From a virus (taxonomy: Duplodnaviria > Heunggongvirae > Uroviricota > Caudoviricetes), in IMG/VR virus record IMGVR_UViG_3300038379_000173, positions 64,001-128,000 of that record: a stretch of DNA of 64,000 bases. One strand, given 5' to 3'. Position 1 is the stretch's first letter, and the number at the start of each line of letters is the position of its first letter. The translations under genes and the position numbers were made by a program. This document shows positions 1-64,000 of this stretch, piece after piece. The notes beneath the pieces are model-generated. The model worked only from the letters and a program-made list of their open reading frames with translations. It had not been told where the DNA came from and did no database searches.

Positions 1-537
1 AAAATGCACATCCCTATTCGTATCCACCCAGATGTTGACCTTCCGAAATTTACAATGGATGTCGTAACCAGGACCGAAGTGAATGGCCGAGCCTTCTAGG
101 AAGCCATCTAGGGTGTTCTCAGATATTGGGCGGTAGTGGTAAGGGTCTCTAAAATGATTGGCCGAAGTCCAATGCGGACATACCATATAGAATTGAGAAC
201 CATTACAACCAACACGCGCTATCTCATTCAGAATACCGATGAAGTGCTCGCCTTCCCTGATATGTTCCATGATATGCTGCGCCTGTAATCTTCCGCAGAA
301 TGTATTATCAGCAATAGGCCAGGGAGTCTGGGTTATGTCATGTTGTATAGTTTGCCCATATTGAAACATATCAATGGTAACGGAGTCTTTCAACCAGTGT
401 TCTGGACGGTCACCACAGCCAACATCTAGATTTGGTAATGAGTATTGAAGAAAATATTGCGGGTTGCGATTTTTAAAATACTCCAATTTCTCCAAATAAG
501 TAGGAGGCGACAAGTTTTCCATTCTGTTAGATAACAT
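1..537 (-). CDS. Class I SAM-dependent methyltransferase (type 11-like), 3' end runs off the window
   Basis: Not in the ORF track because no stop lies in the window. Manual translation from ATG at 537: MLSNRMENL...NLDVGCGDRP...HDITQTPWPIADNTF...QHIMEHI...VCPHWTS...RDPYHYRPISENT. Contains the DxGCG SAM-binding motif; GAGGT RBS upstream. Confidence 0.75.
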   Translation of the reverse strand, partial: MLSNRMENLSPPTYLEKLEYFKNRNPQYFLQYSLPNLDVGCGDRPEHWLKDSVTIDMFQYGQTIQHDITQTPWPIADNTFCGRLQAQHIMEHIREGEHFIGILNEIARVGCNGSQFYMVCPHWTSANHFRDPYHYRPISENTLDGFLEGSAIHFGPGYDIHCKFRKVNIWVDTNRDVHF

Positions 538-566
538 GCAACTCAAAATACCTCTATAGGTTAGCA

Positions 567-1352
567 TTAATATTGCCCCCTACTCTCTCCGCGTACCATG
601 TGATACGATATAGCATCCCCAGCTATGAAAGAAGGAAAACCCGCCCGCTCATACCTGTCGTGAATGATAACATCGCCCGTGAAGCCTCTTTCAAGGGCTG
701 GCATTGGTCCAAAACGCTTAAACAACTCTTTGGATTGTAGCCAACTTACAGAATCACCACGATAGTGCGGGAATCCAAGTGAAGAATTAAACGCCCCCGG
801 CTTACCTTCCCATCTTTCCATCGCTTCCTTAATGGTGAAAAGCCGCGGCTCCTTTATACTATCACAGAATGATATAAATTCGCCCTCTTTGTAAGTAGCC
901 GCAGTTGTTCCAAAGTCTCGGACATAATGACGTGAGCCGTTGGCTAGTGGACTTTCAATACAATTGAAATTAACAATGCATTCGCGACCTACTACTTTGT
1001 AATGTTCAAGTGCACGTGCAAATGAGCCGGGATAGAATGTCTGGTCACTACCGCCGCGGATTGTGAGTGGCGCTGTGCCCATCAATTGCACACGGTTCCA
1101 AGCATTATAGAGACGCACCAAGAAAGATTGCCGCGGGTCCTCATAAACACATTCATATTCTATGCGATTTAACTTGGCTATCTCTACTAATTTGTCGGTA
1201 ATAGCACGAGGAATGGTCTCGTTGTAGTAAATATAAACATTGAACCTCCAACGTTCACGGTCTATCCCGGCGTTCCTCTGTACGTTGTCGATATGAAACG
1301 CAAAAAGTTCGGGGTCGCGCCCAATGATTGTATTGTAATCAAATTCAGTCAT
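567..1352 (-). CDS. Divergent GT-A fold glycosyltransferase-like protein
   Basis: Pattern resembles GT2: RLYNAWN...IRGGSDQ (DxD-like), W..SKELF.RFG, TGDVIIHDR, YHMVRGE; sits in a GT cluster. Confidence 0.5.
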   Translation of the reverse strand: MTEFDYNTIIGRDPELFAFHIDNVQRNAGIDRERWRFNVYIYYNETIPRAITDKLVEIAKLNRIEYECVYEDPRQSFLVRLYNAWNRVQLMGTAPLTIRGGSDQTFYPGSFARALEHYKVVGRECIVNFNCIESPLANGSRHYVRDFGTTAATYKEGEFISFCDSIKEPRLFTIKEAMERWEGKPGAFNSSLGFPHYRGDSVSWLQSKELFKRFGPMPALERGFTGDVIIHDRYERAGFPSFIAGDAISYHMVRGESRGQY

Positions 1353-2157
1353 AAGACTTCACGCGTCCTTCTTTGATTTCAGAGCGCAACTTTTCAATAC
1401 GACGATTGGCGACTCCAACATTGTGTGTTGTGTGCCACACTCCGGTTAATCTTTCGTGGTCTTGATGTACTACGAAATAGTCACAAGCGCAAATAAACTT
1501 CGCATTCACGACCTGGAGTTTTTGAACAAATTCATCATCTTCCCCAGCCCCAGCTTTATAATCCAACCCGTAGATATCTAATTTATCCAAACAATTCTTT
1601 GAAAAAGCACTTACCTATGGATAATAGTTTTGATTATGGTCTATGTGCCAGGCGTCTTTTTGTACCGCAAAAACTTCGTGCAATTGTAGTAAGGCGGCCC
1701 GCTGTTGTGTTATACGACAAAGATTACTGAACACATATCTATTTATATCACAAAGGGCGGCTATCATCTCCAGATGACGTGAACTACCCCAAAGCATATC
1801 CGCACCAGACTTTATTACATAGTTATATTTCAGATACTCAAAACCTTTGTTATAAGCCCTAGAGCTATTAAGAATGTTATCAAGTGTAGCTCCAGTTGAG
1901 ACTATAGAGACATCTAACCATTTGGGAACAGGCGCTATGTCAAGAAACATTCGGACATTATCTAAATTGTCATTTCCACCATCGTCAACTATAATGAGGT
2001 GAACTGGAATGTCAGCGGCGTTTTCCTGGGCGGCTATCGACCAAAGTGCGCGCAATGCGTTATCTACACGCTTGCAGACCGGCATAATGATATCAAAGCC
2101 AGTAGGGCGCAATTGACCTGGAGGACGTTCTAGACATGTGATGTGGCTAATATGCAT
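1345..2157 (-). pseudogene. GT2-family glycosyltransferase interrupted by one in-frame TAG (1615-1617)
   Basis: ORFs 1615..2157 (IIMPV, IIVDDGG, NKG, GAD) and 1345..1590 (GLDYKAGAGEDDEFVQKL...HQDH) share a frame. The 24 nt between them read openly: YYP*VSAFSKNCLDKLDIYGLD. Confidence 0.75.
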
Positions 2158-3243
2158 CTAAGAATATTTGCCCCAAGCTTTCTGCGCATTACCCAATAAG
2201 ATAGCAACTATTTTGGAAGCAACCTCACGATTGTATGGCGAAGTATCTCCGCTGTGCGAATAATCCGTTGATAATAAGAATTTAGCCGCAGTCACTATAT
2301 CATCATTAACATCAACGAGTATAGTTGAGCGATTTTGAAGAAGTTCAACTCGTTCTGTTTTTTCACGAATTTGTAAACAAGGCACACCAAGCGTATAACA
2401 TTCTTCGGGAACTGTGCCGCTATCAGAAATAACTAAGGCAGCACTATTCATTAGGTTTAGGAATGACAGATATGGTTGTGGTTCTATAATAGTTAGGCGT
2501 CCATATCCATCTTTGGCGGCTTCGCGCAACTTCGGCATTTCGATAATAACAACTGGTATTGCCAAAGATTCACGTAGCTCATTCAATTGTTTCAATATAG
2601 AATTGAGTCGCACCGTGTTTGTAACATTCTCGGCACGATGACATGTAACTAGCACATATTCTTTATGAAGTAATGAGTATGGCAAGATGCTATTTTGTAT
2701 GCGCCATTTATTGCTGAATGTTACATCCACTATGGGATTGCCTACCACCCAGATAGACCGCGAGTCAATATTTTCGCGCAGGAGATTAGCACGATGCTCC
2801 TCTGTATAGCAAAAATGAATGGCCGCCAAGTGGTCCACAACGGTGCGATTTTTTTCTTCTGGCATCTTCCAATTGAAAGAGCGGCCCCCACTTTCGATAT
2901 GAACGATTGGGATGTTGAGATTGGCCGCGACTAACGCTGTGGCCAAACTACTATTGTTGTCGCCCAAAATAACAACAAAGGCCGGCTGCTCGTCCTTCAG
3001 CACCCTTTCAAACTCTACCATTATCCGGCCGATTTGTTCTACTTGAGTGGCCGCCTTAGTCTCCAATCGATAGTTTGGTTCGCGCACACCCAACTGTTCA
3101 TACATTACTTTGTTTAAGTTGTAGTCGTAGTGCTGTCCAGTGTCAACCGTAATATTATTGAACCATTTGTCTAACTCGGCTGTAATGAGGCTAAGTCTAA
3201 TAATGTCTGGTCTGCATCCTATAACGGTGACTATTTTTATCAT
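2158..3243 (-). CDS. UDP-N-acetylhexosamine 2-epimerase (non-hydrolysing; FnlC/WbjD/CapG-like)
   Basis: Motifs VIGCRPDIIRL, TGQHYDY, VILGD, HIESGGRS, MPEEKNR, VVGNP, TCHRAENV, ISDSGTVPEE. Confidence 0.9.
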   Translation of the reverse strand: MIKIVTVIGCRPDIIRLSLITAELDKWFNNITVDTGQHYDYNLNKVMYEQLGVREPNYRLETKAATQVEQIGRIMVEFERVLKDEQPAFVVILGDNNSSLATALVAANLNIPIVHIESGGRSFNWKMPEEKNRTVVDHLAAIHFCYTEEHRANLLRENIDSRSIWVVGNPIVDVTFSNKWRIQNSILPYSLLHKEYVLVTCHRAENVTNTVRLNSILKQLNELRESLAIPVVIIEMPKLREAAKDGYGRLTIIEPQPYLSFLNLMNSAALVISDSGTVPEECYTLGVPCLQIREKTERVELLQNRSTILVDVNDDIVTAAKFLLSTDYSHSGDTSPYNREVASKIVAILLGNAQKAWGKYS

Positions 3244-4097
3244 ACTACTTCCTCGAGTGGGATTTGGTGTCTATCAGAAGCCGCTCTTAATGTTTTCCTA
3301 AACAAATATCTATAACATTGGGGTTTTTGTAGATAATCTAATAATCGGATTACCTGTTTACCACCATATTGCAAACTATACGTGCCATTTGTTGGTCGAA
3401 TTGCAACTCTACCAAGTCCACAAGTTTCTTCTAAGACTGTACGTAAGTCGTGCAAAAAAGATTCAGTACTAGCAATTTCTACTCGTAAAACAACGCCAGA
3501 ACTCGTTCTTTCAAATTTTAAACATCCATTACCATCGTAATAGCCACGAATAAAATGTCGTAAGTTATCCTTATCAAGGATTTTAGTAGGGAAAATACCT
3601 ATTTTTGTTTTGTTCGGCAATATATTGAAATTATTAACTAAATCGCATTTAATCTGTGCATAAGAACAAGAAAAGCGACAAGTCGCCTTATCGGCGTTTA
3701 TTATTGGTTTTACATCTAACTGTATATCTTCCAAAAATTGTTCGAGATGCATGATGTCTTTAACTGATATATCAAGTGTCAAACAGTTACTATCATTATC
3801 AAGACTGCCGTCTGCACTAAGATATCCAGCCCAATAACACGACAATGAATTAAAATGAGAAAAAAAGTTTTCATTAAGCGGACACTTACTAAATTTATAA
3901 CGCATTAAGTTGGCTTCAGAACGAGACCTAATTGGAACTTTTTCTTCTTTCAAAATAATCTTTATCGGAACAATTGAAACGCCAAAATGTAAAGCTATTT
4001 TATCAATTGATAAACCGCTATTATACAAATCACAAACTTCCCGACGAGATTCTTCTGTAAGGAAAAGACGCTTCTGGCGAGCCACATTAAATCTCAA
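3240..4097 (-). mobile_element. Free-standing LAGLIDADG homing endonuclease with N-terminal HTH
   Basis: Two LAGLIDADG-type helices (YWAGYLSADGS; HFIRGYYDGNG), N-terminal HTH (LYNSGLSIDKIALHFGVS), C-terminal YLFRK. True start may be GTG at about 4085. Confidence 0.8.
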
Positions 4098-4124
4098 CTT
4101 TCAGTCTTGTTACAATTTTCCGCT

Positions 4125-6392: not shown

Positions 6393-6574
6393 TTCCCTAA
6401 CCTCTTTAGATGCCACAAGTGTGCCTTTTCTATGTAGGCCGCCAAAATTCCCGCCGTTATTTTCTGCTCTAATAAAATGACAGGGCCGCCGCAAAAACAT
6501 ACAGTAATATACTCTGGGCCAAGTTGGCCGCACCGTAGACACTTACGTATACGCACGCGCACACCATATTGCAA
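6389..6574 (-). CDS. Small putative zinc-ribbon protein
   Basis: CLRCG...CFCGG pattern. Fills an otherwise empty gap, and its TGA overlaps the epimerase ATG (ATGA coupling). Confidence 0.45.
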   Translation of the reverse strand: MQYGVRVRIRKCLRCGQLGPEYITVCFCGGPVILLEQKITAGILAAYIEKAHLWHLKRLGK

Positions 6575-10518: not shown

Positions 10519-11775
10519 TTAAAAACTCTTTTCTGTGCTATTCTCAAGAGCACCGAGAGAAGTTTGAGGATTAAGTGTCTGACGCACTGCGTCAAAATAC
10601 CCAGTGCCGACAAACCCCTGATGTTTGTAAGCTCTATAGCCCATAGAGGTTAACATCTTCTCGTTTTGTTGTAGTCGCGAATAACCCAACATGCCATCGT
10701 TTGCAAAATCGTGGGCTAGTGCAAACATATCTTTATTGAGTGAATGGAAACCAGCAAGAGTAACGAAACGAAATTTATAGCCCAGGGTGTTTAGACGCTT
10801 ATCATACTCGACAAGGTCGGCCGGAGTCATTTCTGTCCATTCTTTGAATGACGGGCTCATGTTATAGGCTAGCCACTTCCCAGGAAATCTCTCGTGGATA
10901 GCATTGGCAAATTTCTCTGCGTCTTCCAAGGATGGATTAGAAGTCTCGCACCAAACAACATCGACATATTGGGCAAAAGCTAAAGCTCGCTCAATAGCCC
11001 ACTGGAAACCACCGCGTATTTTGATGAATCCATCGTCGGTTTGTTTTGCGACAGAAAAATGCGTATCGACTTCCTGATACTCAATAAACCTTACATCTGT
11101 TCCGTCTGGAATACAACGAGTAAGAAGACCAGCAGCTTCTGCATCAGTGCGCCCAATAATCACAAGAGGCACATCGCAAATGTCGGCCATTAACCGGGCC
11201 GCTTTTAATTTTTCAATGAATTCCTCAACTGGCACCAACACCTTGCCACCCAAATGTCCACATTTCTTTTCACTACTCAGTTGGTCCTCAAAATGGACAC
11301 CAGCCGCCCCAGCCTTTATCATCCACTTGGTAAGCTCAAAGGCATTCAAAGCGCCGCCAAAACCGGCCTCACAATCAGCAACAAGCGGAATGACGTAAGG
11401 ACGCAATTCGCCATTAATAGAAGTGATTTGTTCTTGACGAACAAGTGCATTGATAATTCCTTCGACCAAACGTGGACAACGGTCGGCAGGATATAAGCTT
11501 TGGTCTGGGTACATATCACCATTAACATCCGCGGCAACTTGCCATCCAGACACATAGCCGGCCTTGAGGCCGCCATCTACCATTTGGACGGCCTGGGCCG
11601 GCGTAGATATTCCAAGGGCACTCACGCCATCTTTTGATGCTAACAGTGAACGTAAAGTCCTAGCGTTGTGACTAGTAAAGGAATAATCATGGCGCATAAA
11701 ACCCCTAAGGCGGTCAACGTCCTTTGAAGACCACGAGCGCTCAGCGTTGCATGTCCACCAATCGTTATCTGACAT
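10519..11775 (-). CDS. aceA: Isocitrate lyase
   Basis: YVSGWQVAAD, MYPDQSLYP, PLVADCEAGFGG, GVHFEDQ, catalytic KKCGH, IIGRTDA, WCET, AYNMSPSF, KHQGFVGTGYFD. Confidence 0.97.
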   Translation of the reverse strand: MSDNDWWTCNAERSWSSKDVDRLRGFMRHDYSFTSHNARTLRSLLASKDGVSALGISTPAQAVQMVDGGLKAGYVSGWQVAADVNGDMYPDQSLYPADRCPRLVEGIINALVRQEQITSINGELRPYVIPLVADCEAGFGGALNAFELTKWMIKAGAAGVHFEDQLSSEKKCGHLGGKVLVPVEEFIEKLKAARLMADICDVPLVIIGRTDAEAAGLLTRCIPDGTDVRFIEYQEVDTHFSVAKQTDDGFIKIRGGFQWAIERALAFAQYVDVVWCETSNPSLEDAEKFANAIHERFPGKWLAYNMSPSFKEWTEMTPADLVEYDKRLNTLGYKFRFVTLAGFHSLNKDMFALAHDFANDGMLGYSRLQQNEKMLTSMGYRAYKHQGFVGTGYFDAVRQTLNPQTSLGALENSTEKSF

Positions 11776-11778
11776 AGT

Positions 11779-13221
11779 TCACCTAGGATTGAATGTCCCA
11801 TTTGTAATAGACTCAAGGGTTATTTTGGCCGCTTCTTTTGCCAACGGAGCATTATCACAGGAATCTAATATTTCTTCTACAGCAGACCCAACGTCGTATT
11901 CACTGTGAACCTTTTGCGCCAAGCGTTGGCCAACCATCAGACGATTGATACGGTCAGTAGCCAAATCTTCCATGTATCCGTCAATCAAAGAAGCTCCGCG
12001 TCCTTCCAATACACCTTGGCGATATAAAATAGAAGTACGCAAAGCCGCCTTTGTTCCTTCAATAGTTACTGGCAAGTGTTCGCGCTCAGGAAAAGCTTTA
12101 AGGTCAGGTCGCAGCCACTCTTCACCTGGTCGCACTTTTAGTTGATTTTTCCTTCTGAAGCATTTAACCGCAATAGCATTTTGGTCAGGATGTCCAGTCC
12201 ACGCCCCGTCCATACCGCAATCAAATTCGTTTTGCTTGTCCGCTTTCAGTCTATCTAGAGCTAGAGTATTAAGCGCTGAATCCTTCCGGGACGGAAATAA
12301 GGCGGTCATGCCGCCAATAGCCAATAGACCATGTGAATGACAGAACTGAACAAGTTGCTTCCGATGATGCTGAAAGAACGTTACGTTGTGCGGAATGGCA
12401 TTACGGTCGGGAAAAATCCAATCGGGCCGCTTGAATGTAAAATGTATGATGGACGCCATGAGGTCCCAGCGCCCAAGGGCAAGTCCAACCAAATAATTCT
12501 TGAGAACCTCACCAAATTTTTCTAGGTGATACGGAAGCGGCATTGATTCTACTAGAGCCATACACTTAATGGTCCCAAGCGGCCATTTCTTTGCTCTCTC
12601 GATGGCTACAAAAGCATCTCGCCACCATTGGCCGTCAAATGTACTCTCGCATTTAGGAATCATTATACATGGGGCGTGAGGTAGTGATTCAAGTGTCATG
12701 TCTCCGAAAATCTCACAGAGGTCATAGAGAGACGCGGGTATTTGTATGTCAACCTTGGCCGCCGTATTGATATATTGGGAGAGGTGTAGACCGCGCGGCC
12801 GAAACCAGACTACGGTACCATTTCCAATTTTAAGTTCACTACTTAAAACCTTCTTTATGTTCTCATGGCCGGCAGTAATCGCACCCCATGTGTTAGCCAC
12901 AGAATCCTCTAGGTCTAACATAACACCAGGGGAACCAGACATAAGAAGTTTGGCGGCCAAATCTAGATTATCGGCCGGCCCAGTCATTTGGTTGCGTTGG
13001 TCTAAAAGCCAGGAGGGCAACGATACCTTCCATTGAGACGGTTCTTCTGCCACTGGATAATCAGGGAGAACATTACGCCAACCTAACAAAAGTTGTTTTG
13101 TGCGAAGGTCATTCAGATGACGCCAACGCCGCCACAGCGCTGTTTTGTCGCGGAGATAAACCCAAAGTCTGGCCGCCCCGCCTTTTATTTGTTCGCTGCG
13201 TGGCATATAATTTGGTTGCAC
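11779..13221 (-). CDS. aceB: Malate synthase (A-type-like)
   Basis: QMTGP, MLDLEDS, RPRGLHL (catalytic Arg), IPKCES, LVES, GRWD, IGGM, KADKQNE, DGAWTGHP, MEDLAT (catalytic Asp). Confidence 0.93.
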   Translation of the reverse strand: MQPNYMPRSEQIKGGAARLWVYLRDKTALWRRWRHLNDLRTKQLLLGWRNVLPDYPVAEEPSQWKVSLPSWLLDQRNQMTGPADNLDLAAKLLMSGSPGVMLDLEDSVANTWGAITAGHENIKKVLSSELKIGNGTVVWFRPRGLHLSQYINTAAKVDIQIPASLYDLCEIFGDMTLESLPHAPCIMIPKCESTFDGQWWRDAFVAIERAKKWPLGTIKCMALVESMPLPYHLEKFGEVLKNYLVGLALGRWDLMASIIHFTFKRPDWIFPDRNAIPHNVTFFQHHRKQLVQFCHSHGLLAIGGMTALFPSRKDSALNTLALDRLKADKQNEFDCGMDGAWTGHPDQNAIAVKCFRRKNQLKVRPGEEWLRPDLKAFPEREHLPVTIEGTKAALRTSILYRQGVLEGRGASLIDGYMEDLATDRINRLMVGQRLAQKVHSEYDVGSAVEEILDSCDNAPLAKEAAKITLESITNGTFNPR

Positions 13222-18844: not shown

Positions 18845-21241
18845 TTAAAGATGTGTGATATCATATGCAACAAAGCTGCCTTTGTTTTTTTTGCCAGTAA
18901 TCAAAACTGGCCGACCTTCCTCAATAATCCATCCAATGGTGAGATAGCGTGATGCAAACACAACCACGTTATCACACATATAGGTATCATCGGATACGCT
19001 CAAGAAGGCCATCCATTGGCCGCGCTTATCCTTAATAGTCCGCACTTTTTCTATCACTACGCCCATCGCGCCGCTCGTACCTTCTTTCAATTTAGGTAGG
19101 TTGGCACACTTTATATTCACACGGTCATTATGATAAAGGTCTACTAGACTTCCAGATAGTGGAACGCCCAAATAGTGCTTTTCCCACGCTATAGCAGTAC
19201 GCTTAGGCGAGCCGCCGGTTAGTTTCTCGATGGTGGCACGCGCCTCAATCAAGCGAGGCTTGCGCGCCTTATTCGGTATCTTAGAATTTATTAATGTATT
19301 AAACGCACCATCAACAGTCGCTTGTTGCCCTAAGAGTGGCCGCACAAAGTCCAACTCACGTGGTGTTAATTCGCTCAGTGTGGCATAATCCCTATAGAGC
19401 TGAAGACGTTGGCGGCCAAGATAATCAACAGTGCCAGATTTAATCAACCCAACCACCACGTCCTTGCGCACCTTATTTTCAAAACACTTTAACAAAAACT
19501 CGTTCGGGTCTTTGACTGTCCGTAGTGTATCAATTTGTTTATGTGCACTTTCTCCGACACCCTTGATGTGTCCAAGTCCAAAAACAATAGTTTTTGAGTC
19601 GAGTTTAGCAAAATCCATGTTGCCCAAAGAGAGATGGGGCGGCTTAATATTCAGACCAAAAAACCGCGCCTCGAAGACTAGCTCTTGGATTTCTTCTAAA
19701 GAATCCTGCTTAGACTCCGAAAAAGTCAACATACTTTTGAAAAACTCTAATGGGTAGTTAGCTTTGGCGTAAGCTGTCCTATATGATATTAGAGCGTAAC
19801 TAACGCCATGTGAGTTAGACACAACAAAGTCGTTAGCAACCCAATTGTGTTCTGGCGTATCCATCTCAACATCATATGTGTCTTCAACTCCAGCACTCTC
19901 TATAGAGATGATAGTAGACGTAGAAGATTTATGTCCTTTATCCCATTGTTTGGCCCGACCCATTTTGTAATCTTCTTTTTTGTGACACGACACGCAAAGT
20001 TTTAGTAGATTTTCTCGAGTATTAACAGTCCTGTCACCATTAACATGATGCCACTCAAGACACTTCGGTTTAACTCCACAAATTTCACAAGTGTTGATAC
20101 CTTTATATTCCTCTTGTATTGAAGACAAAGCAGCAAAATTCTCGTGGATAAACCCGCCATTACGTCTACCAATAGTATCTACTAGCCCGAGTGGATTACC
20201 TCGCTCTGTTGTATCGTGGACGTTGTAAGATTGCTTAACCTCTTCGTCATACTCATCAATATGTGTTATGACAACGCCACCTACGCCAATCTGTCCAATC
20301 TGAACCATACCATTTGGCGTTAGAAATTTATGGTCAAGAGTACACTTTATTGCACGTCCACAGTCATCTCTAATCCAAAAAACTTCTTTCTGGCCATTAT
20401 AATGAATGGTTTTTATAGGAGCAGGCCGCACTCGTCCATCTGAATGTAAAGCTAGACACTTACCATACCCTTCTCGAAGAAGTTTTTTACGCATAGGTTG
20501 TTGTTTATGTTTTAATGCATACTTAGAGTCATTCATAAGTCGATACAAGTGACCAACTCTTTGTATGTTTCCATGTTCGTTACCAGATGGCCTAATTAGG
20601 ACGGTTTCACCAGAAACACACCTATTAAACGAATAGCCTGAAAACTTCTCCATCCAATCCCAAATAGATTCAGCCAACTTTCTATCATTACCTTTCTTGA
20701 CGGCTCCTTCTATAAATTTACCTTTGATTTCTGCCATCAAAGCAGGTAACTTTTTACCAGTCGCTTTTCTGTATGAGTCTGCCTCTTTTAATGAGAAACC
20801 AGCAAAGTCCGCACAAATTCTCATCAGTTGTTCTTGATAAACAGGCACGGAAAACGTTTCGCCTAAAATGGGTTCCAGACACTCATGAACATATTCTGGC
20901 TCCCACTCGCCATTTTTTACTTTAATGTAAGTATTGGTGATGGAGCTAAACTCTCCCGGCTTATCAGGTTTTTCTCTAAACTCTGCCTCAATACAACCTG
21001 GCCTAATTAATGATAGAACATCACTTAGCTCCGCAATACTACGCGGCTTAATCTCCTGACAATAACGCTTACCTAGCTGCTTTTCAAGCTGAAAGACGCC
21101 TTTGGTAAACCCAGACGAGAGAAGGTCCCAAGTTTTTTTATCATCCAATGGAATGACATTGAAATTAAGCTTCCGCTTGCGCTTCTCGATAGCATCGATA
21201 GCGTTAGCACGAACGGTTGCGGTGGTAGACAAATCAGTCAT
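18845..21241 (-). CDS. dnaE: DNA polymerase III alpha subunit, C-terminal half (fingers/HhH/OB), contains an intein
   Basis: IPLDDKKTWDLL, GVFQLE, LIRPG, VYQEQLM, GYSFN..SH, YPLEF, FGLGHIKGVG, OB fold with MAFLSVSD. Confidence 0.92.
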   Translation of the reverse strand: MTDLSTTATVRANAIDAIEKRKRKLNFNVIPLDDKKTWDLLSSGFTKGVFQLEKQLGKRYCQEIKPRSIAELSDVLSLIRPGCIEAEFREKPDKPGEFSSITNTYIKVKNGEWEPEYVHECLEPILGETFSVPVYQEQLMRICADFAGFSLKEADSYRKATGKKLPALMAEIKGKFIEGAVKKGNDRKLAESIWDWMEKFSGYSFNRCVSGETVLIRPSGNEHGNIQRVGHLYRLMNDSKYALKHKQQPMRKKLLREGYGKCLALHSDGRVRPAPIKTIHYNGQKEVFWIRDDCGRAIKCTLDHKFLTPNGMVQIGQIGVGGVVITHIDEYDEEVKQSYNVHDTTERGNPLGLVDTIGRRNGGFIHENFAALSSIQEEYKGINTCEICGVKPKCLEWHHVNGDRTVNTRENLLKLCVSCHKKEDYKMGRAKQWDKGHKSSTSTIISIESAGVEDTYDVEMDTPEHNWVANDFVVSNSHGVSYALISYRTAYAKANYPLEFFKSMLTFSESKQDSLEEIQELVFEARFFGLNIKPPHLSLGNMDFAKLDSKTIVFGLGHIKGVGESAHKQIDTLRTVKDPNEFLLKCFENKVRKDVVVGLIKSGTVDYLGRQRLQLYRDYATLSELTPRELDFVRPLLGQQATVDGAFNTLINSKIPNKARKPRLIEARATIEKLTGGSPKRTAIAWEKHYLGVPLSGSLVDLYHNDRVNIKCANLPKLKEGTSGAMGVVIEKVRTIKDKRGQWMAFLSVSDDTYMCDNVVVFASRYLTIGWIIEEGRPVLITGKKNKGSFVAYDITHL
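19814..20620 (-). mobile_element. Cis-splicing intein (269 aa) with HNH endonuclease domain in dnaE-C
   Basis: Starts CVSGET, block B CTLDHKF, HNH CEICG...WHHVNGDRTVNTRENLLKLCVSCH, block F TYDVEM, ends FVVSN followed by Ser+1. Extein junction GYSFNR|SHGVSY matches the conserved FNK-SH site. Confidence 0.92.
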
Positions 21242-21561
21242 TGGCCGCCTTTGTCAAACTTTACACCGTGCTGTTTCTCTAATTCTTTTTTCATAACTTC
21301 CGTGTTACGTTGCTGCTCAGCTTTTTCTTCGTCCTTCTCACCAATCTCGTGTCCGTAGGTTTTCTTGAACCAATCGCCCGCTCGAACCTTCGGAATGCCG
21401 AAGGAAAATGTTGTTAAACATGGACGCCGCATCATAGTGCCTAAACAATGTTGACATAGATAAGTTTTATCTAACTCCTCCGTGGAAAATCCTTGTACCC
21501 AGCGACTTTCTTGATAATTGCACGTGTCGCATCTATAGATGTGATTAGGCATTGTTGGCAC
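21238..21561 (-). CDS. FmdB-like zinc-ribbon protein
   Basis: MPNHIYRCDTC...CQHC pattern. Confidence 0.7.
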   Translation of the reverse strand: MPTMPNHIYRCDTCNYQESRWVQGFSTEELDKTYLCQHCLGTMMRRPCLTTFSFGIPKVRAGDWFKKTYGHEIGEKDEEKAEQQRNTEVMKKELEKQHGVKFDKGGQ

Positions 21562-22012
21562 TCAAAAAGAAAGATTTGTGTGGCGCTGAAGCTATGATGT
21601 CCTTGATAGACACGATAGCAAGAGTGAAACGTTTGCCGTCCCCGCCATTTTTGATTTTAACACACTTTGATGTGTCAAGGAATGAACGAAGGGCCGCGGT
21701 TTCAAATGCAAAAATAAGACGTTGTGTCCCTTCACACGGCACCACGTAATAGACCCAGGTGGCCCCAGTAGTTGTGATACCAGTGGCGCCCTTATTATTA
21801 GCCAATTCAAAACACAGATTGCCGGTGCGCTTAGCCATTATGTCATATTTAACTTCAACGTAAACATCCCCATCGGGGCGCTCTAATTTAATGTCGCCCA
21901 ACTGCTGAGTGGCCTTATCACACTCCACCACTACCTCGCCTTGGTCGGCAAAGAAATCCATTAGGAGTCCTACGGCCTCTTTAGAGGCGGCCATGTCTTT
22001 TACAAAGCCCAC
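21545..22012 (-). CDS. PD-(D/E)XK-like nuclease fold protein
   Basis: GDI...YVEVKYD...TGNLCFE. Confidence 0.6.
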   Translation of the reverse strand: MGFVKDMAASKEAVGLLMDFFADQGEVVVECDKATQQLGDIKLERPDGDVYVEVKYDIMAKRTGNLCFELANNKGATGITTTGATWVYYVVPCEGTQRLIFAFETAALRSFLDTSKCVKIKNGGDGKRFTLAIVSIKDIIASAPHKSFFLSANNA

Positions 22013-22552
22013 TTAGGAAACCTTAGCTTTCTTGGTCCCACGCCTTGTACGCATAACTGCTCTACTAGGAACTAAAACTGTGGCGGCAGACTTCTTAGTC
22101 TCTAGTATAATATCGTTGATGGGCTTCACTGCTTTCCTAATAGACATATGAGCAATAGGTTCACCAGGCGAAACAATCACTGGCACGTCATTGTTGTTTG
22201 TTAATACGACTGTAACTGGACCATTTAAACCTTGTTTTATAACTGGAATCATCATAATGCCGAGAGTTGCCAAATCATCCAACCCTTGGATGAGAACCTC
22301 ATAAGGTGATGATAAAGTAATACTGAAACCCAAGTTTATTTCTTTAGAACTACGCGGCCCTATTACCCAATCAGCCGGCTGAGCTTCTGTCCATTTTGCT
22401 GTAAACACCGGCCTGTCTTTTAAATGACGAACGAGAACGCCCATTGTGACATCAGAAGGTTTAGGGCAAAATCCACTATAAACCCAAAAGCCAGATTTGG
22501 TTTTTGTCGGTTGACTAGCATCTTCATGTAATAATTCTATTGAAACTTTCAT
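22013..22552 (-). CDS. Degenerate dUTPase-fold protein
   Basis: Collinear with the neighbouring dut (LLHEDASQPT; LGFSI; VVLTN; PGEPIAH) but lacks the RSG, GTID and GFGSTG motifs. Confidence 0.7.
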   Translation of the reverse strand: MKVSIELLHEDASQPTKTKSGFWVYSGFCPKPSDVTMGVLVRHLKDRPVFTAKWTEAQPADWVIGPRSSKEINLGFSITLSSPYEVLIQGLDDLATLGIMMIPVIKQGLNGPVTVVLTNNNDVPVIVSPGEPIAHMSIRKAVKPINDIILETKKSAATVLVPSRAVMRTRRGTKKAKVS

Positions 22553-22563
22553 TATCTGCCTTC

Positions 22564-23112
22564 CTATCTTGTTCCTGTTGAGCCAAAGCCGCCTTGGCCG
22601 CGCTCTGTCTTAGGAAGCTCGTCCACAAGTTCCAAGACGATTTTAGGTGCACGCTTAATACAAATCTGTGCTATTTTGTCTCCTGGACGTATAATGATGT
22701 TTCTATCATTTAAATTAGTTAGAAGTGCGCACATTTCCCCAGTAAAACCGCTGTCAATTGTTCCAAGACCATTTGCAACCATTATATTTTTGGCGGCCAA
22801 CCCACTCCTACAGCGCAATTGTACTTCCCAACCTGGAGGTGTAGCAATACTGAACCCTAATGAAACTTTGGCAGGAGTCATTGGTTGAAGTAGCCATCCA
22901 CCTACTGGAATAGGTTCTAAATGCCATAGGACAGAGACTTTGTTGACATTAACTTCCGGCAAAAAGGCACCTATCATTAACTCCCGTTCTTTATTTGGAT
23001 TCACTGATGCATAAACGTCCATACATGAATCATCATCGTGCGCATAAGTTGGCAACTGCGCATCTGGATGTAAAAGTTTAATAGGTAAGCCCACTAATTC
23101 CCGCTCTGACAT
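22564..23112 (-). CDS. dut: Trimeric dUTPase
   Basis: All five motifs: MDVYA, RSGLA, GTIDSGFTG, GDKIAQ, ERGQGGFGSTG. Confidence 0.95.
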   Translation of the reverse strand: MSERELVGLPIKLLHPDAQLPTYAHDDDSCMDVYASVNPNKERELMIGAFLPEVNVNKVSVLWHLEPIPVGGWLLQPMTPAKVSLGFSIATPPGWEVQLRCRSGLAAKNIMVANGLGTIDSGFTGEMCALLTNLNDRNIIIRPGDKIAQICIKRAPKIVLELVDELPKTERGQGGFGSTGTR

Positions 23113-23415
23113 TTAATCCTCACAATCTTCTTCGGTATCTTCTTCAATATAAGCTATACTAGGATATCTCTCTACGATAAGAGAAGCAATGCTATCTGGC
23201 ACATTGTGAAGAACACTCCAATGTGTATCACCATCTGCTGTGATGTCATGTCCAGCTACAATAGAAGCAATTTGCTGTAGTTGTTTAGCAGCCTCAGCCA
23301 ACTCCGACCCCCAATTTTCTAGAGCAACAAAAACTTGTGCATTTGGCGCTTTTGCTAAATGATGCGCAAAATCGTCACCATTTTTCCAATAAGGAAAGAT
23401 TCTAATAGATTTCAT
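23113..23415 (-). CDS. Hypothetical protein
   Basis: Coupled ORF with no gaps to its neighbours; acidic C-terminus. Confidence 0.6.
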   Translation of the reverse strand: MKSIRIFPYWKNGDDFAHHLAKAPNAQVFVALENWGSELAEAAKQLQQIASIVAGHDITADGDTHWSVLHNVPDSIASLIVERYPSIAYIEEDTEEDCED

Positions 23416-25289
23416 TATTCCACTCCATTAACCTGCTTCTCAATGTCGTCCAACACATCCAGGGTTTTAAGCCCCAGTACGTCCACTTTAAGGTAGCCCA
23501 AAGAATCCAGGGTGTCCATGTCCCACTCGGTCATCATGGTCTCCTCGCGTGTATTCCACGAGAGAGGGAAGCCATTTTCAAAGGGCTCATCAGAAATAAC
23601 CACGCCGGCCGCGTGTGTCCCGCGATTTTTGGGGCACCCTTCCAATTTCTGTGCGATGCGGAAGAGGCGCGGATATTTTTCGGCATATTCCTTGATTTTA
23701 TCCGACTCCTCAAGAGCCTCTTTTAATGAGACGGCTTGGCCGTGCTTGAGTGGCACATAGCGGGTCATTACATTGGCATCGTCATAATCCATGCCGCCCT
23801 GACTACCTAGTATCTTAGCCGTATCCTTTAAGACAGCCTTGGAGCCTAGAGTGTTGAATGTAACAATCTGGGCAACCCTGTTGGTGCCAAAACGCTCCTT
23901 GATATAGTCCACGACGCGCTTACGGTCCTTCTGTGAAAAGTCAAGGTCGATATCAGCAAGGGAGCCTTTACGGCCTGCGTTGTAAAAACGTTCCCACAAT
24001 AGCCCGTATTGTAGAGGCTCCACGCCGGTAATACCAATGCAGTAGGAGACCATGGACCCCGCACTCGAGCCGCGCCCGGTACCTGTCGCAATTCCTTGCG
24101 CACGCGCCCACGTAACTATATCCCAGATGATTAGAAAATAGTCGGCAAGGCCGGCATCTTTGATGTCTCTAAGCTCCCTAGAGAGACGCTCGCGATGTTC
24201 ATCTGTGCGGTCAAACCAACTGCACTGATATCTTTGTTCATATCCTTTCATTACTAACTCACAGAGATAATTGAAAGCACCCATGTCCTTAGGCTCACTC
24301 TGAATATCAATGCACTCTTTGGCCGCCGAACATCCAGTTTGGTCGTGGTCAGGTAGGAATTCATAGCGCGGCAGATGTAATTTTTTTTCAATAACAACAT
24401 CTCCGATGCGGTCAGCAATAGCCGCACTCTCTTCAATTTCACTTTGAAAGAGCGAGGTAGCTCTCTGCACGCCATCTTCGGTTGTAAGTGGTTCATACAA
24501 CATGTGATGGGCATCTTTCAACCAATACTCGCGAGTAGAGTAGTATGGACGATATTTTTGTCCTTCTACGTTATCCTGCGGGCCGCCTTTAATCGGGTCA
24601 TCAAATGTGTTGTAGGTACGAATAGCCCAGATACCCTCATGTGCCTCAACATCATCCCTATCGACATAATGGGCGTCCTGACACCCAACTACTTTAACCC
24701 CCAATTGGGAGGCAAAGCGCCGCATTACTTCGTTAACCTTCGGTTGAATGTTCAGGCCGCCATCTTGGACCTCAAGATAAAAACGGTCTCCAAAAATTCC
24801 ATGGAGTGTTTTAGCGTGCTCAAAGGCATCATCATATTTCTCTTCGGCAATGTTATATGGCACAATACCCTTCAGGCATGCTGTCAGACAAATCAATCCA
24901 TTCGAATGTTCGCGCAAGTCCTTATAGTCAATACGTGGGGCATAATAGAATTTTTCATTAGCCTTAGTGGTCAGCTTTTTGATGTTAGTCCAACCTTCTT
25001 GGTCCATCGCCATAAGGATTAGATGATGGTTCTTACGATTCTTCTCTTCCTTAGCCTTAGCGGCATCTGCTTGGAAATAAAACTCTTGCGCCAAAATTGG
25101 CTTTATCTTCGCCTTTCGACATTCGTTGTAGAACTCTGGTGTTCCAGCACAAGTCCCATGGTCTGTGAGAGCAATGGCAGGGTGGGAGTATTCTACTGCA
25201 CGTTTAACGATATCCGGTATTTTACTAACCGCGTCCAATGCGGAATACGTGCTGTGGAGATGGAGATGAACCATATTAACTTTTGCCAT
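23415..25289 (-). CDS. dnaE: DNA polymerase III alpha subunit, N-terminal half (PHP + palm/thumb)
   Basis: HLHLHS, TDHG, QEFY, TAC, QDAHY (complete PHP metal ligands), GRGSSAGS, DIDLDF, HAAGVV, KVDVLGL; start refined to ATG 25289. Confidence 0.95.
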   Translation of the reverse strand: MAKVNMVHLHLHSTYSALDAVSKIPDIVKRAVEYSHPAIALTDHGTCAGTPEFYNECRKAKIKPILAQEFYFQADAAKAKEEKNRKNHHLILMAMDQEGWTNIKKLTTKANEKFYYAPRIDYKDLREHSNGLICLTACLKGIVPYNIAEEKYDDAFEHAKTLHGIFGDRFYLEVQDGGLNIQPKVNEVMRRFASQLGVKVVGCQDAHYVDRDDVEAHEGIWAIRTYNTFDDPIKGGPQDNVEGQKYRPYYSTREYWLKDAHHMLYEPLTTEDGVQRATSLFQSEIEESAAIADRIGDVVIEKKLHLPRYEFLPDHDQTGCSAAKECIDIQSEPKDMGAFNYLCELVMKGYEQRYQCSWFDRTDEHRERLSRELRDIKDAGLADYFLIIWDIVTWARAQGIATGTGRGSSAGSMVSYCIGITGVEPLQYGLLWERFYNAGRKGSLADIDLDFSQKDRKRVVDYIKERFGTNRVAQIVTFNTLGSKAVLKDTAKILGSQGGMDYDDANVMTRYVPLKHGQAVSLKEALEESDKIKEYAEKYPRLFRIAQKLEGCPKNRGTHAAGVVISDEPFENGFPLSWNTREETMMTEWDMDTLDSLGYLKVDVLGLKTLDVLDDIEKQVNGVE

Positions 25290-25497
25290 ACAAACCGCCC
25301 CTGTGACAAACAAAATACACTTCTATGGCATCCTTATGAATGAATGCAGAAGACTCCAATAAACCAATCAACCTATCGTCCTGCCTAAGCCACTTAGGTT
25401 CCTTCAGCACAAAATTCTCGCCCCTCATCCTAAAATCATTCGCGTAAATCTTCGTCTTGTCCGCTAATTGGAGTATTATTGGCCGCTTCTTCGACAT
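25276..25497 (-). CDS. Hypothetical protein
   Basis: MSKKRPIILQL...; RBS-like GGGGG upstream; overlaps both neighbours. Confidence 0.5.
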   Translation of the reverse strand: MSKKRPIILQLADKTKIYANDFRMRGENFVLKEPKWLRQDDRLIGLLESSAFIHKDAIEVYFVCHRGGLYGKS

Positions 25498-28170: not shown

Positions 28171-29347
28171 TTACAGCTTTTGATAAATAAATGCACACCG
28201 TGCTCTGTGGTTTGTCGAACTTGTAATCATTATGTCAGCTATCCTTTTAAAGGATAATTTACTATACATCGGCAACACTTGGTCGAGCCAAATCAAAAAT
28301 CCGCCACGCTTCAAAAGCTGCGCACATTGTTTTACAACAGCTTCGCGTTTTATCATAGGATAACCGTATTTAAGAGCATCGGATTCAGCATAAGGCGCAT
28401 CTGCAATTATAATTCCAAATTGTTTATTAGGAAAATATGTCAAAAGTTGTGTCGCATCTCCAACAACATCTGGATTAAGTTCCTTATTGATGTCAAACGT
28501 TATACCTGGAAATTCTCCAATATATGCAGCATTCCTTGGTATAGAAAGAGAACCACTAAACAAATGTAACACATCGTCCTTTTTGTATTCAGGAAAAAGT
28601 GTTCTTATTCTAGAGAGATATTTATAAGGATACGCTCCATGATAACCAGAGCCCTTATAACAGGCTCCGATACACCAATTACCTACAATCCAGCCATTGC
28701 TATAAGTCATAGATGGGTATTCTGGAAAAGTATTGTTATACAACGCAACTCTATCAGCCAACGACAGAGTATCATGTGCAACAAATGTTTTTGCGAACGT
28801 AACTATATTCTTAGCATGCTCAAGAAATTCAGTCTCAGATAGCTTACCTTTCATTCTATTACAAGTCCAACAACACGGAACACAATTCTCGTATACATAA
28901 TGTTCATTACAATCTAATCTATCAATACCATTTTTGGTATGTAATGCTGACATTTTTTGTGCGGGTGTAGCATTACAATAATAACAATTGGAAGTTATTA
29001 AACAAGCAAATTCTTCTAAAGAAAGAAGATTCTCAACGGAGCCTTCGTGATGCCTTTGAATGTTAAGTTCAAAATTCTTAAACGCAGATTGTATTGCTTC
29101 TTCTTGAGAAGAACAAACCGCTTCTTTCCACGCGTCACTTTTGACGTTTAAATCTCTCTCATCTCTTTTTCTTTTTTCTTCACTACATTTATATCTACAA
29201 CTTTTAGAGCAATGCCTCTTATTAGCAATTTTACGTAAAAAAAACTTTGCCGCAAGTATCACAAGCAACCTCAACAACCTTGAAAAACTTCGGACAATCT
29301 GTTTTGTGGACACTAGCACTTTTACATATCTTACATCTATTAGCCAC
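28171..29347 (-). CDS. Zn-finger/HNH endonuclease fused to a DNA amino-methyltransferase-like domain; frameshifted at a T8 tract (29237-29244)
   Basis: GTG 29347 with GGAG RBS gives MANRCKIC...CDTCGKVFFT* (stop 29231-29233). Shifting +1 at the T8 run continues LRKIANKRHCSKSC. HNH: CYYC..GIDRLD..NCVPCCWTCNRMK. MTase: LHLFSG, DINKELNPDVVGDA, IIIADAPY. Confidence 0.8.
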
Positions 29348-34892: not shown

Positions 34893-35860
34893 TAGATTAC
34901 AGTCGCAAGTTTCTGAGCAACTCTAGTGCGTAGCCCAACATCGTTTGTGAGAGCTTCAAGCATATCACTTTCTTGACGTTTAACGTCCTCAAATGTATAC
35001 CAGCCGCCGCCTTTCGTATACTCAATAACACCAAGTTCCTTAGCAAATTGTAGGAGGTCCAAGATACGGTCAATGCCGCGACCGAAAATAATTGGAAATT
35101 CTACTTCTCGACACGGTGGCCCTTGATTATTCTTGATGACCTTACAAGATGTCATCTGGCCATATACATTACCTTTTTTATCTTTTAGATACGAAGATTC
35201 TGTTTTTTTCAGGCGAACACGCTGGGCGGCAATATCCTTTACTGCCTTCCCACCCTTAGTCAGGTCCCCTGACTGGTATGGATTCATCTTGGCAGTTATG
35301 TGGGAGATAAACAACACCATACATTTATTACGTTCAGTAGGCCCATTTATTTTACGAATCATCTTGGCAGCTAATTTTGCCACAGCACCCATTTGTTGTT
35401 TCTCGGCATCTTCTGAATCCTCGACCTCAGGAAGCATTGCAGTAAGAGAGTCGAAAATAATTACACAGCCCGGTGAATTATTCAGACATTCAAGTACTTT
35501 GTTAACTGCTTCCTCACCATTATCAGGCCGAATACGGATGAAGAGAGAGAGATTAAGCCCTTTGACCATCTGGACTTGCGAACGAACCAACTTGCGCTCA
35601 AGGTCAAAGTAATAAACTTGCTTACCCATCTGGGTAGCGTTGGCGCAAACTTCGAGCGCCAGCGTGGTTTTACCACACCCCTCCTCACTGTAAATCTCAT
35701 TAATTGAGCCTTCCACAAAGGGATTAACAAGAGCCCAGTCAAGCCTTACGCTTCCCGTTGAAATAGGCTTTGGGTCTTCCAAGAGAATATCTTGGCCGGC
35801 AACAGCCTGCTTGCCCCATTCCTTTAAAAGGCTTTCGGAAAATCCAGCTAATTCTGCCAT
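34892..35860 (-). CDS. recA: RecA/UvsX-like recombinase
   Basis: ISTGS, Walker A EEGCGKTT, FDLE, IIFDS, GGKAVK, KVIKN, FGRGID, GGWY. Confidence 0.92.
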   Translation of the reverse strand: MAELAGFSESLLKEWGKQAVAGQDILLEDPKPISTGSVRLDWALVNPFVEGSINEIYSEEGCGKTTLALEVCANATQMGKQVYYFDLERKLVRSQVQMVKGLNLSLFIRIRPDNGEEAVNKVLECLNNSPGCVIIFDSLTAMLPEVEDSEDAEKQQMGAVAKLAAKMIRKINGPTERNKCMVLFISHITAKMNPYQSGDLTKGGKAVKDIAAQRVRLKKTESSYLKDKKGNVYGQMTSCKVIKNNQGPPCREVEFPIIFGRGIDRILDLLQFAKELGVIEYTKGGGWYTFEDVKRQESDMLEALTNDVGLRTRVAQKLATVI

Positions 35861-35883
35861 ATATCCTCCAGTACTAATATAGG
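35861..35883 (-). promoter_or_regulatory. CCTATATTA...GGAGGAT element upstream of recA (near-identical one upstream of ssb at 18802-18825)
   Basis: recA: CCTATATTA-GTACT-GGAGGATAT-ATG; ssb: CCTATATTA-TTGTCA-GGAGGATTT-ATG. Confidence 0.5.
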
Positions 35884-35908
35884 AGGAGAAAACACCAGTA
35901 TATTTTCC

Positions 35909-36223
35909 TTAACCCTTCAAACGTCCTTGAGCACGACCAAAGCCGCCAACGGAATGTTGAGAAGTCCTGTAACCCCAATAGTTTATCAGTCTAGATGTCG
36001 AGGATGTGACTAATCCTGAACTGCTTACTTCGACAGGAGTACCTTGTGATACATCTTGGATAAGTAGAGCGGTAGAAACAACGACTGGTGTTCCTTGTGG
36101 GATACTAGGCTGCAAAAGTGTAGTTCTGATTAAAACAGGGGCGCCAAAGTAAGATGTGTAGACAGCCTCATATGAGGCGCTATCCCAAACTGGGAACCCT
36201 AATTTAAAATCAGTTTCGGCCAT
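35909..36223 (-). CDS. Hypothetical protein with internal QGTPV.VS duplication
   Basis: LLQPSIPQGTPVVVS / LLIQDVSQGTPVEVS. Confidence 0.55.
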   Translation of the reverse strand: MAETDFKLGFPVWDSASYEAVYTSYFGAPVLIRTTLLQPSIPQGTPVVVSTALLIQDVSQGTPVEVSSSGLVTSSTSRLINYWGYRTSQHSVGGFGRAQGRLKG

Positions 36224-56940: not shown

Positions 56941-56960
56941 AAGCTTAGTCCAACGAGAAT

Positions 56961-57659: not shown

Positions 57660-57660
57660 G

Positions 57661-58035: not shown

Positions 58036-58037
58036 TC

Positions 58038-59168: not shown

Positions 59169-59216
59169 GGAAAACCCACAAAAGAGAACCCAGTCGCTAT
59201 AAAGACGATGCGACTA

Positions 59217-60380: not shown

Positions 60381-60483
60381 TTGACTTAACTCCTTGTCCT
60401 ACAAGGGCTCTAACTTATTTTACCACTGCGCGGCCTACAAACAAGTTTCCCATCAGACCTATTGGATAATACACCGATAGTGG

Positions 60484-62553: not shown

Positions 62554-62554
62554 A

Positions 62555-62992
62555 TTACCATACCAATATACCGTCGTCACCAGCCCGGTTCATTTTTTCA
62601 ATTAGTATAGCTTCTTTCAACTCGGCGCATGGACCATGTGGAGAATCTAAGAAAGAAGCGCGGGCGCCAACGCGTTGACGTGTATCTATTGTTTGCTCGC
62701 CATCAACAAAATATATACCGCCGCCGCCAGTTGAAGAAAGGTCCGCCTGTGCATCACGAGTGACTATCATACATTCAGCTTGCAATAACACTAGGTCTTG
62801 AAGGTCTGGATTGGCAGGAGTTATTTCTCCGCTAGCATCTACTGAAATTTCTTCGTCTGTTCCGATTAGATAAATCGCACGATTAATTCGCCGCGCGGCC
62901 TTACCTAATATAGTAATGAGTTGGGAGTCTGAATATCGGAGAGTACCACTATCATCTGCGATATCAACGCGTAAATCATTTAAAAGGGTCAT
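62555..62992 (-). CDS. Head-tail adaptor/connector-like protein
   Basis: LRVDIADD...YSDSQL..IL..AA..IN pattern; GGAGG RBS. Confidence 0.6.
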   Translation of the reverse strand: MTLLNDLRVDIADDSGTLRYSDSQLITILGKAARRINRAIYLIGTDEEISVDASGEITPANPDLQDLVLLQAECMIVTRDAQADLSSTGGGGIYFVDGEQTIDTRQRVGARASFLDSPHGPCAELKEAILIEKMNRAGDDGILVW

Positions 62993-63066
62993 GGGCAGCC
63001 TCCGGGACTCTCAATATTAAATACCCCGTGGCTCGAAGACTCGCCATGTTTGCTTGAAGCAAACCC

Positions 63067-63426
63067 TTATAGAACCATTTTAAGTCTATCCTTCAACTGC
63101 ATCATTTTGTGGCGGACCCGCTCAGGCGGCCAGTCATCTTCAAAGTGATATGGCACACCTAAAGCGTCGGCTAACTGGAGTGCTAATGCATCTGAAAGTT
63201 TAGAACATTCGGAAGCTTTGAAAGTAACGTCTGGGATGTTTAAATTGAGTAGTTTGGCGGCCAATTTCTTTGTGACGTAAACTTCCTCTAGGATATCCTT
63301 GTGCTCCAACCATTCCTTATATGTTAAACGTACTGGGCCCAATCTGCCGTAGTTGTAGCAACGACCATGAACCTCTTTATTTCCAATTGTGCGGCGGCCC
63401 ATCGGTTCTTTGAGATAAACAAACAC
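63067..63426 (-). CDS. Hypothetical protein
   Basis: Open ORF with plausible RBS. Confidence 0.55.
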   Translation of the reverse strand: MFVYLKEPMGRRTIGNKEVHGRCYNYGRLGPVRLTYKEWLEHKDILEEVYVTKKLAAKLLNLNIPDVTFKASECSKLSDALALQLADALGVPYHFEDDWPPERVRHKMMQLKDRLKMVL

Positions 63427-63428
63427 GC

Positions 63429-64000
63429 CTAGACCTCCTGCGGTATAAGTCCAAGGTCTGTTAATTGTTTTTTGTATTTCCTTGGGTGTAATATAACGTA
63501 AGGTAGATTATTAGCCTTATAGTAAAGAATTTTCTCATTCCCTGCGTCATAATTAAGTTCTTCGCGATGTTCACACCTTTGAACACCAAGTCCATCGACC
63601 TCTATATATATTTCACCAACTTTAAAATCTGCGCGCCACTTTCTATCTGGTGTAACTCTTACCTCATTCTCATACTTAATGTTATGTTCTAGTAGAAAAT
63701 TCGCAACTTTAGCTTCCAGTTTACTGCGATATTTAAAACCATCTAATCCAACAGTTGGTACTCCATATAGTTTACAATTGTCCAGCATATCTATCCTCCA
63801 AGAGCGATTATTTTTCAATGCGACACTCTCTCTTGGTATTCCTAATTCTTTCGCAACAGCATCGTAATCTCGTAATTTTTCAAGTAACGCCTTACCTTTA
63901 CATGACAACTCCGGCGTCCACCTGTGAATTGGAATACGCCATTCGCTTAAGTTTTTGTTTTCAATAGTAAATCGTTTTAATCCAAAAAGTTTCCCGGTTT
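63429..64000 (-). CDS. PD-(D/E)XK (DUF559-like) endonuclease, probably homing-type; 5' end off the window
   Basis: YRSKLEAKVANFL...KWRADFKV...IEVDG. The frame stays open from 63908 to 64000 (TGKLFGLKRFTIEN...), so the gene starts outside the window. Confidence 0.65.
   Translation of the reverse strand, partial: TGKLFGLKRFTIENKNLSEWRIPIHRWTPELSCKGKALLEKLRDYDAVAKELGIPRESVALKNNRSWRIDMLDNCKLYGVPTVGLDGFKYRSKLEAKVANFLLEHNIKYENEVRVTPDRKWRADFKVGEIYIEVDGLGVQRCEHREELNYDAGNEKILYYKANNLPYVILHPRKYKKQLTDLGLIPQEV

Follow-up and report, generated by a model that had tools for sequence, protein, structure and literature searches.

The 64,000-nucleotide window analysed here (positions 64,001 to 128,000 of the IMG/VR virus record IMGVR_UViG_3300038379_000173, in the following G000) belongs to a large tailed phage whose DNA does not contain a single GATC. 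This absence is probably explained by a gene of the phage itself, located on the minus strand of the window at 21545-22012 and starting with GTG, which encodes a small orphan PD-(D/E)XK nuclease of 155 residues that has no methylase as partner. Judged from the co-occurrence of gene and motif across phages, this candidate endonuclease would cut DNA and would do so at GATC. The gene was identified by a contrast of gene contents, and its assignment is supported by alignment and predicted fold.

According to exact counts GATC is absent from the complete window (1-64000) and from the entire record of 167,041 bp, a linear, 91% complete virus from a freshwater metagenome sample. For the window, base composition predicts about 242 sites and a maximal-order Markov model 171; the latter also gives the expectation for the whole record (0/442; word counts are written as observed/expected), and GATC is by a wide margin the most depleted 4-mer of the window. 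The palindromes GGCC (251), GCGC (311), TCGA (126), CCGG (118), and CTAG (155) appear in near-expected numbers, and CATG, GTAC, and CTAG show a mild shortage (0.6-0.76 of expectation). An earlier note on this DNA had reported that GATC was wholly missing from the 64 kb where 240-250 sites should be found and that these five palindromes occurred freely, and the exact k-mer count with Markov expectation that it had proposed bears this out. It was also right that genes which could have been acquired recently are purged as well, because the window contains aceA, aceB, a LAGLIDADG gene, and an intein, all of them free of GATC. The removal of GATC is synonymous in all three reading frames. Asp ahead of a codon starting with C is encoded 276 times by GAC and never by GAT, yet GAT is the majority Asp codon elsewhere. 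Similarly, Ile following a G is never encoded by ATC (0/277), and codons ending in GA do not precede TCn (0/165). Shuffling synonymous codons yields 306 +/- 15 GATC sites compared to none in the actual sequence. This synonymous recoding excludes an artefact. An error of sequencing or assembly at methylated GATC has next to no credibility, given that the zero recurs in cultured phages and in relatives assembled independently.

Among the relatives of the phage the GATC pattern is all-or-none. GATC is missing from 51 of the 58 loci fetched by the capsid protein, and whole records are at exact zero (the complete G002, G006, G007, G016, and others). Three contigs (L045, L062, and L067) join phage to non-phage DNA, two of them being among the seven capsid loci with GATC and the third being one further locus. 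They were rejected as GATC-keeping relatives because their GATC lies in the joined non-phage DNA and the phage part is GATC-free. In these contigs the GATC content marks the junction to within a gene, which is useful for spotting chimeric assemblies of this phage family. Record G005 and a divergent group remain as true exceptions. The sister clade keeps GATC and has lost GTAC, GCGC, or hexamers. The GATC zero is fixed clade-wide while other words vary by lineage. The contrast of gene contents between both types of relatives gave one nuclease-like candidate, the gene at 21545-22012. It is present in all six GATC-free relatives in which the region is covered, and absent from G005, whose region is fully covered, as well as from six records of the sister clade. 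In a syntenic pair, L153 has the gene and no GATC, and L152 lacks the gene at that place and has 52 GATC.

Several methylases were considered and rejected as explanations. A Dam methylase as the reason why relatives keep GATC was dismissed since a search of 33 further records, complete sister genomes among them, found no PF02086, and G005 gave only weak sub-threshold matches to this family. The PF05869, MT-A70, and Mom-like genes do not track the GATC state, and the methylase encoded at 28171-29319 is present in GATC-free and GATC-keeping relatives alike (homologues in G005, G006, and G007). The complete 177-kb relative G002 (L073-L081) has zero GATC, zero GTAC, and lacks at least 16 hexamers and several 7-mers; it has 45 tRNA calls and a transfer-messenger RNA, and no methylase by motif scan.

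G005 looks like a reversal, in which the nuclease gene was lost and GATC sites were regained afterwards, because it is nested within the GATC-free clade and still keeps the dipeptide deficit of this clade. In a tree of 15 genes the approximately unbiased test rejects a GATC-free clade (p 7e-45). The Asp-Pro/His/Gln pairs amount to 0.77 in G005 and 0.57-0.76 in the GATC-free phages, values that became informative when the sister clade supplied the baseline of 0.91-1.13. G005 (L083) encodes a divergent D12-like and a beta-class methylase that are missing from the GATC-free relatives (G005:23054-23809, 35450-36157), and it lacks CCATGG.

The nuclease has invariant D40, E53, and K55 residues in an alignment of 16 rows (A6), together with TGN..FE and GGD motifs. 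It did not match any Pfam family at E-values up to 1 and has a weak match to phrog_13596, whose function is not known. The AlphaFold2 model (predicted local distance difference test score of 93) has a restriction-enzyme-like PD-(D/E)XK fold. Its top structural matches are all PD-(D/E)XK enzymes, many of them restriction enzymes, with middling Z-scores: I-Ssp6803I (Z 9.6, root-mean-square deviation 3.4, 123 aligned), NhoI (Z 9.0, 4.0, 127), Hjc and Eco15I (both Z 8.3), and MspI (Z 7.4). DpnI reaches only Z 5.8. The family is large, comprising 4,367 clusters at 50% identity. The gene is located between the two halves of dnaE and beside dUTPase genes, and in several unrelated phages the homologue is found near polymerase, dUTPase, exonuclease, or ribonucleotide reductase genes. 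No methylase adjoins the gene, whose neighbours encode dUTPases, a zinc ribbon, and DnaE, and the Dam-type family PF02086 is absent from the record. The other methylases of the phage are distant from the nuclease and, by motif scan, not common to the complete carrier G002. The gene is free-standing without any intron or intein setting. The matches to the Hjc resolvases and to I-Ssp6803I, and the position among replication genes, would also fit a replication or recombination nuclease of the resolvase or homing type, which has a side preference for GATC and does not attack foreign DNA. This seems very improbable to us, because the gene is patchy and dispensable, being absent from complete sister genomes, and because the subfamilies described below each track another palindrome, which the carriers lack entirely, whereas a resolvase would need sites in its own genome.

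The link between gene and motif extends far beyond the relatives of the phage. All 38 loci of the main subfamily that were fetched from IMG/VR by the nuclease are at GATC zero (0 compared to 2114 expected in 701 kb) at GC contents of 30-55%; eleven of these are from the clade of the window phage, and some are near-duplicates. When records were fetched by markers other than the nuclease, the gene turned up in all seven GATC-free records of at least 40 kb, three of which lie outside the query alignment, but not in six shorter GATC-free fragments (20-33 kb). None of the 56 GATC-keeping records, seven of which are at least 90% complete, has the gene. The GATC state of most of these was judged from loci of 10-21 kb. 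In fetched DNA of cultured phages the split is found within a single host, Pelagibacter ubique HTCC1062, whose carriers HTVC019P (0/100) and HTVC011P (0/86) are free of GATC and whose non-carriers HTVC010P (131/143), HTVC023P (133/130), and HTVC008M (12/67) are not. The other cultured carriers whose DNA was fetched are also at zero (HMO-2011 0/109, CRP-143 0/145, C75C1 0/114, and XacN1 0/85 in 20 kb). In a Pelagibacteraceae single-cell genome the 18 kb of a carrier prophage are free of GATC, whereas six sites are found in the host flank of 2 kb, and in Belliella calami a 15-kb stretch around a nuclease homologue is at zero.

These data bear on the classical explanation, according to which the sites were avoided only because of host restriction of GATC (of the DpnII/MboI/Sau3AI or the DpnI type, or linked to GATC phosphorothioation) and the nuclease gene travels with the same lineages as a passenger. 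GATC is indeed the palindrome most commonly under-represented in phages (PMC7320823), near-complete loss of a site is found in about one of ten viral genomes (PMC6286503), and the phage family clearly faces host restriction-modification (R-M), with many hexamers, GTAC, and GCGC being absent from relatives regardless of whether these have the gene. However, this explanation accounts neither for the gene-based split among phages of one host species nor for a gene that predicts the zero across unrelated phage groups and hosts, and it leaves open why the GATC zero is clade-wide when other words vary. In addition, Pelagibacterales metagenome-assembled genomes (MAGs) have been reported to lack any identifiable R-M system (PMC9516812). 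We therefore regard host restriction alone as a poor candidate. The earlier note had read the absence as strong, long-standing selection against a GATC-acting enzyme, and this part of its interpretation stands on the clade-wide zero, the synonymous recoding, and the dipeptide footprint. Its proposal that this enzyme comes from the host is probably not correct, as the absence tracks the phage nuclease gene even within one host species. Nor does the absence help to predict the host, as the note had suggested, because the carriers infect hosts as diverse as Pelagibacter, Puniceispirillum, a roseobacter, and Xanthomonas.

A further observation that host restriction does not explain comes from a sister subfamily (YDPMS; L311-L371), which tracks GGCC. 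In 40 loci, which mostly keep GATC, GGCC is found once compared to 641 expected sites, which is what sequence recognition by the protein itself would produce. Two more homologue loci (L305 and L306) lack CATG. This shift of the tracked word between subfamilies suggests that specificity has changed within the nuclease family.

Based on these data we propose that the phage's own small endonuclease recognises and cuts GATC. Since the enzyme has no partner methylase, it would attack every GATC site of the phage's own DNA during infection, and the genome, newly acquired genes included, would be held at exact zero by silent substitutions. The enzyme would be tolerated only in a genome without sites. 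The most likely target would be host chromosomal DNA, whose cleavage might supply nucleotides and shut off host defences. The DNA of co-infecting phages may be a target as well, and the exclusion of rivals is an equally possible role. Expression during replication and a role in host DNA breakdown are suggested by the polymerase, dUTPase, exonuclease, or ribonucleotide reductase genes that the nuclease gene adjoins. It could well be that host restriction purged GATC initially, that the nuclease could be accepted only by genomes purged in this way, and that it now locks the zero. This two-step history is compatible with a phage nuclease as the present cause, differs only in the first cause, and is a serious contender that we rate slightly below the opposite. 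A phage with hundreds of sites in its genome would presumably not survive the arrival of a four-base cutter without methylase, the non-carrier HTVC008M is partly depleted, and sister lineages purge other 4-mers without having the nuclease gene. However, the predicted intermediate, a long GATC-free record without the gene, was not found in the group of the window phage.

Methylation of the site might block the proposed cleavage or be required for it. In the latter case a modification-dependent enzyme (DpnI-like or BisI-like) would cut host-methylated GATC only, and the phage would drop GATC to escape methyl-marking and self-cleavage. NhoI and Eco15I, two of the four best fold matches, are methyl-directed enzymes of similar size. 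Also, a virus-encoded Gm6ATC cutter, HhiV4I, exists (PMC11037411). On the other hand, the record gave no match to DpnI, the 155 residues of the nuclease leave no room for a winged-helix sensor, and Pelagibacter MAGs are reported to have GANTC methylation (PMC9516812), yet the pelagiphage carriers are free of GATC. A modification-dependent enzyme is thus unlikely, although clearly less so than host restriction as the only cause.

Several observations weigh against a GATC-cutting phage nuclease. All evidence for GATC cutting is correlative, and the p-value of 2e-9 from the 2x2 table overstates the case because the carriers are not phylogenetically independent. The fold scores are middling and are shared by Holliday-junction resolvases and a homing endonuclease. 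The two methyltransferases of G005 are a second possible reason for its sites. One homologue, which looks intact and has a variant ELK motif, comes from a Caulobacteraceae contig rich in GATC (L384, 182/165). Homologues were also found in three MAG contigs of Bacteroidota, where GATC is depleted without reaching zero (L387 2/39, L388 4/32, and L389 19/58). In relatives, GTAC, GCGC, and many hexamers are at exact zero although no member of the nuclease family was detected there, so that a zero count alone does not require a phage nuclease. Finally, the GATC-free phage K and halovirus HF1 gave no family match in a search without positive control, and therefore the family does not explain all GATC-free viruses. 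In the three Bacteroidota contigs, which are from Saprospiraceae and Cytophagales, the homologues are located among cellular-looking genes and may be domesticated copies. A GCGC-free sister genome (G014) encodes a 162-residue protein with a PD...EVK motif (L260:15369-15857), which is possibly an orphan nuclease for another word.

Beyond the window phage, it is probable that a large family of methylase-less four-base restriction enzymes exists in phages, with subfamilies for GATC, GGCC, and perhaps CATG, whose carriers would be protected by site deletion alone. The carriers considered here include jumbo-like freshwater phages, the Xanthomonas phage XacN1, and abundant marine phages (HMO-2011 and the T7-like phages of SAR11). 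A sizeable share of GATC-free phage genomes would then be due to their own weapon and not to host defence. If this is true, the textbook view of missing sites would be reversed for many phages, from evasion of a host defence to self-avoidance of an offensive enzyme, and a widespread hypothetical protein of cultured ocean phages would have a function. It would also call for caution in predicting hosts from missing sites, make enzyme specificity readable from genome composition, and offer a source of very small candidate four-base cutters. The link is directly testable because cultured carriers and non-carriers share one host.

The phage has bacterial-type replication genes (split dnaE, dnaB, dnaG, recA, and thyX), a glycan island, and virion genes, and its genes are preceded by Shine-Dalgarno sites. 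All of the following genes of the window are on the minus strand. The N-terminal half of dnaE (23415-25313; PHP and NTPase domains, PF02811 and PF07733) is the upstream boundary of the nuclease block, followed by two genes of the dUTPase family immediately upstream of the nuclease (22013-23112; PF00692), a small zinc-ribbon gene that overlaps the nuclease stop (21238-21561; weak PF09723), and the C-terminal half of dnaE (18845-21241; finger and helix-hairpin-helix regions, PF17657 and PF14579) with its GATC-free intein-like insertion (PF14890 under the cut-off). The dnaE halves (18845-25313) are separated by several open reading frames, and the split is kept in G002, G005, G006, and G007; the intein-like insertion is found only in the window phage and its close relative L111. 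At 28171-29319 an HNH/endonuclease VII-like domain and a phage DNA methyltransferase domain are encoded as an in-frame fusion (phrog_3816 and phrog_1035). Its methyltransferase part (phrog_3816) stands alone in relatives and has the amino-methylase motif DAPY, not DPPY. Apart from this fusion, the phage has genes for an adenine methylase (PF05869), an MT-A70 methylase, and a protein of the Mom family (L005:1148-1666; L007:18061-19752). The host-type genes aceA and aceB (10519-13221; PF00463 and PF01274) lie within the glycan island, at the same place as in L110 (8508-11305), where aceB is apparently broken into three open reading frames, and in L111 (8546-11281). The LAGLIDADG-like mobile endonuclease gene is at 3240-4097 (PF14528). 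Host prediction was unsuccessful: no close cultured relative was found, the aceA matches were uninformative, the MAG labels look like misbinning, and G006, which is labelled as provirus, shows no host flank.

Several longer words, which the earlier note had not noticed, are depleted to near zero genome-wide (GACGTC 1/20, GAGCTC 0/14, AGGCCT 0/12, GAAGAGC 0/11, CAGCTG 4/15, CTGCAG 6/17, and GTCGAC 7/19). The same set is missing in a close relative with 70-80% protein identity, and the sister clade, which does not have the nuclease gene, is also short of hexamers. Hexamer depletion is probably a separate layer of ordinary host restriction avoidance. In G000, CGCCG/CGGCG reaches 0.58 of the expected number, and CAGCTC/GAGCTG is also low (6/28).

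GATC-free genomes are known from the Staphylococcus phages K, PYO, and fRuSau02 (PMC7958385, PMC5618024) and from the HF1-group haloviruses (PMC7230728), and restriction-site avoidance in virulent dsDNA phages has been read as a defence against host enzymes (Rusinov 2018, PMC6286503). The window phage resembles these cases in that GATC is wholly lost from a genome of more than 100 kb, clade-wide and by silent change, but the known cases are attributed to host enzymes, and here the absence follows a phage gene. In the literature, which was covered incompletely so that this is a weak sign of novelty, no paper was found that deals with the nuclease family or with phage nucleases that lack a methylase and whose carriers are protected by erasure of the sites. 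With the Type IIP GATC enzymes DpnII, MboI, and Sau3AI, and with DpnI, the nuclease shares the PD-(D/E)XK fold and presumably a four-base palindromic target. Unlike the Type IIP enzymes it is phage-encoded, has only 155 residues, and has no neighbouring methylase, and the DpnII (PF04556) and DpnI (PF06044) families gave no match in the record. DpnI combines a catalytic domain with a winged-helix sensor, whereas the nuclease is a single domain. The minimal fold and size are those of I-Ssp6803I, NhoI, Eco15I, and Hjc (PDB 2ost, 8q5n, 8q5m, and 1gef; Z 8.3-9.6), which are 9-13% identical. The BisI-family members NhoI and Eco15I are tied with unrelated PD-(D/E)XK enzymes, and the fold tells neither target nor methylation dependence. 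In contrast to homing endonucleases and Holliday-junction resolvases of the same fold, the nuclease is neither located in an intron or intein nor universally retained in its lineage. The closest parallels in function would be nucleases of other viruses. EndoII and EndoIV of T4 degrade host DNA while the phage is shielded by modified cytosine, and the R-M systems of chloroviruses degrade host DNA while the virus is shielded by the cognate methylases. Similarly, the window phage would cut host DNA and spare its own by a difference between the two, in sequence instead of chemistry. Unlike in T4 and the chloroviruses, its protection would consist of having no sites at all, and neither a modification nor a partner methylase would be needed.

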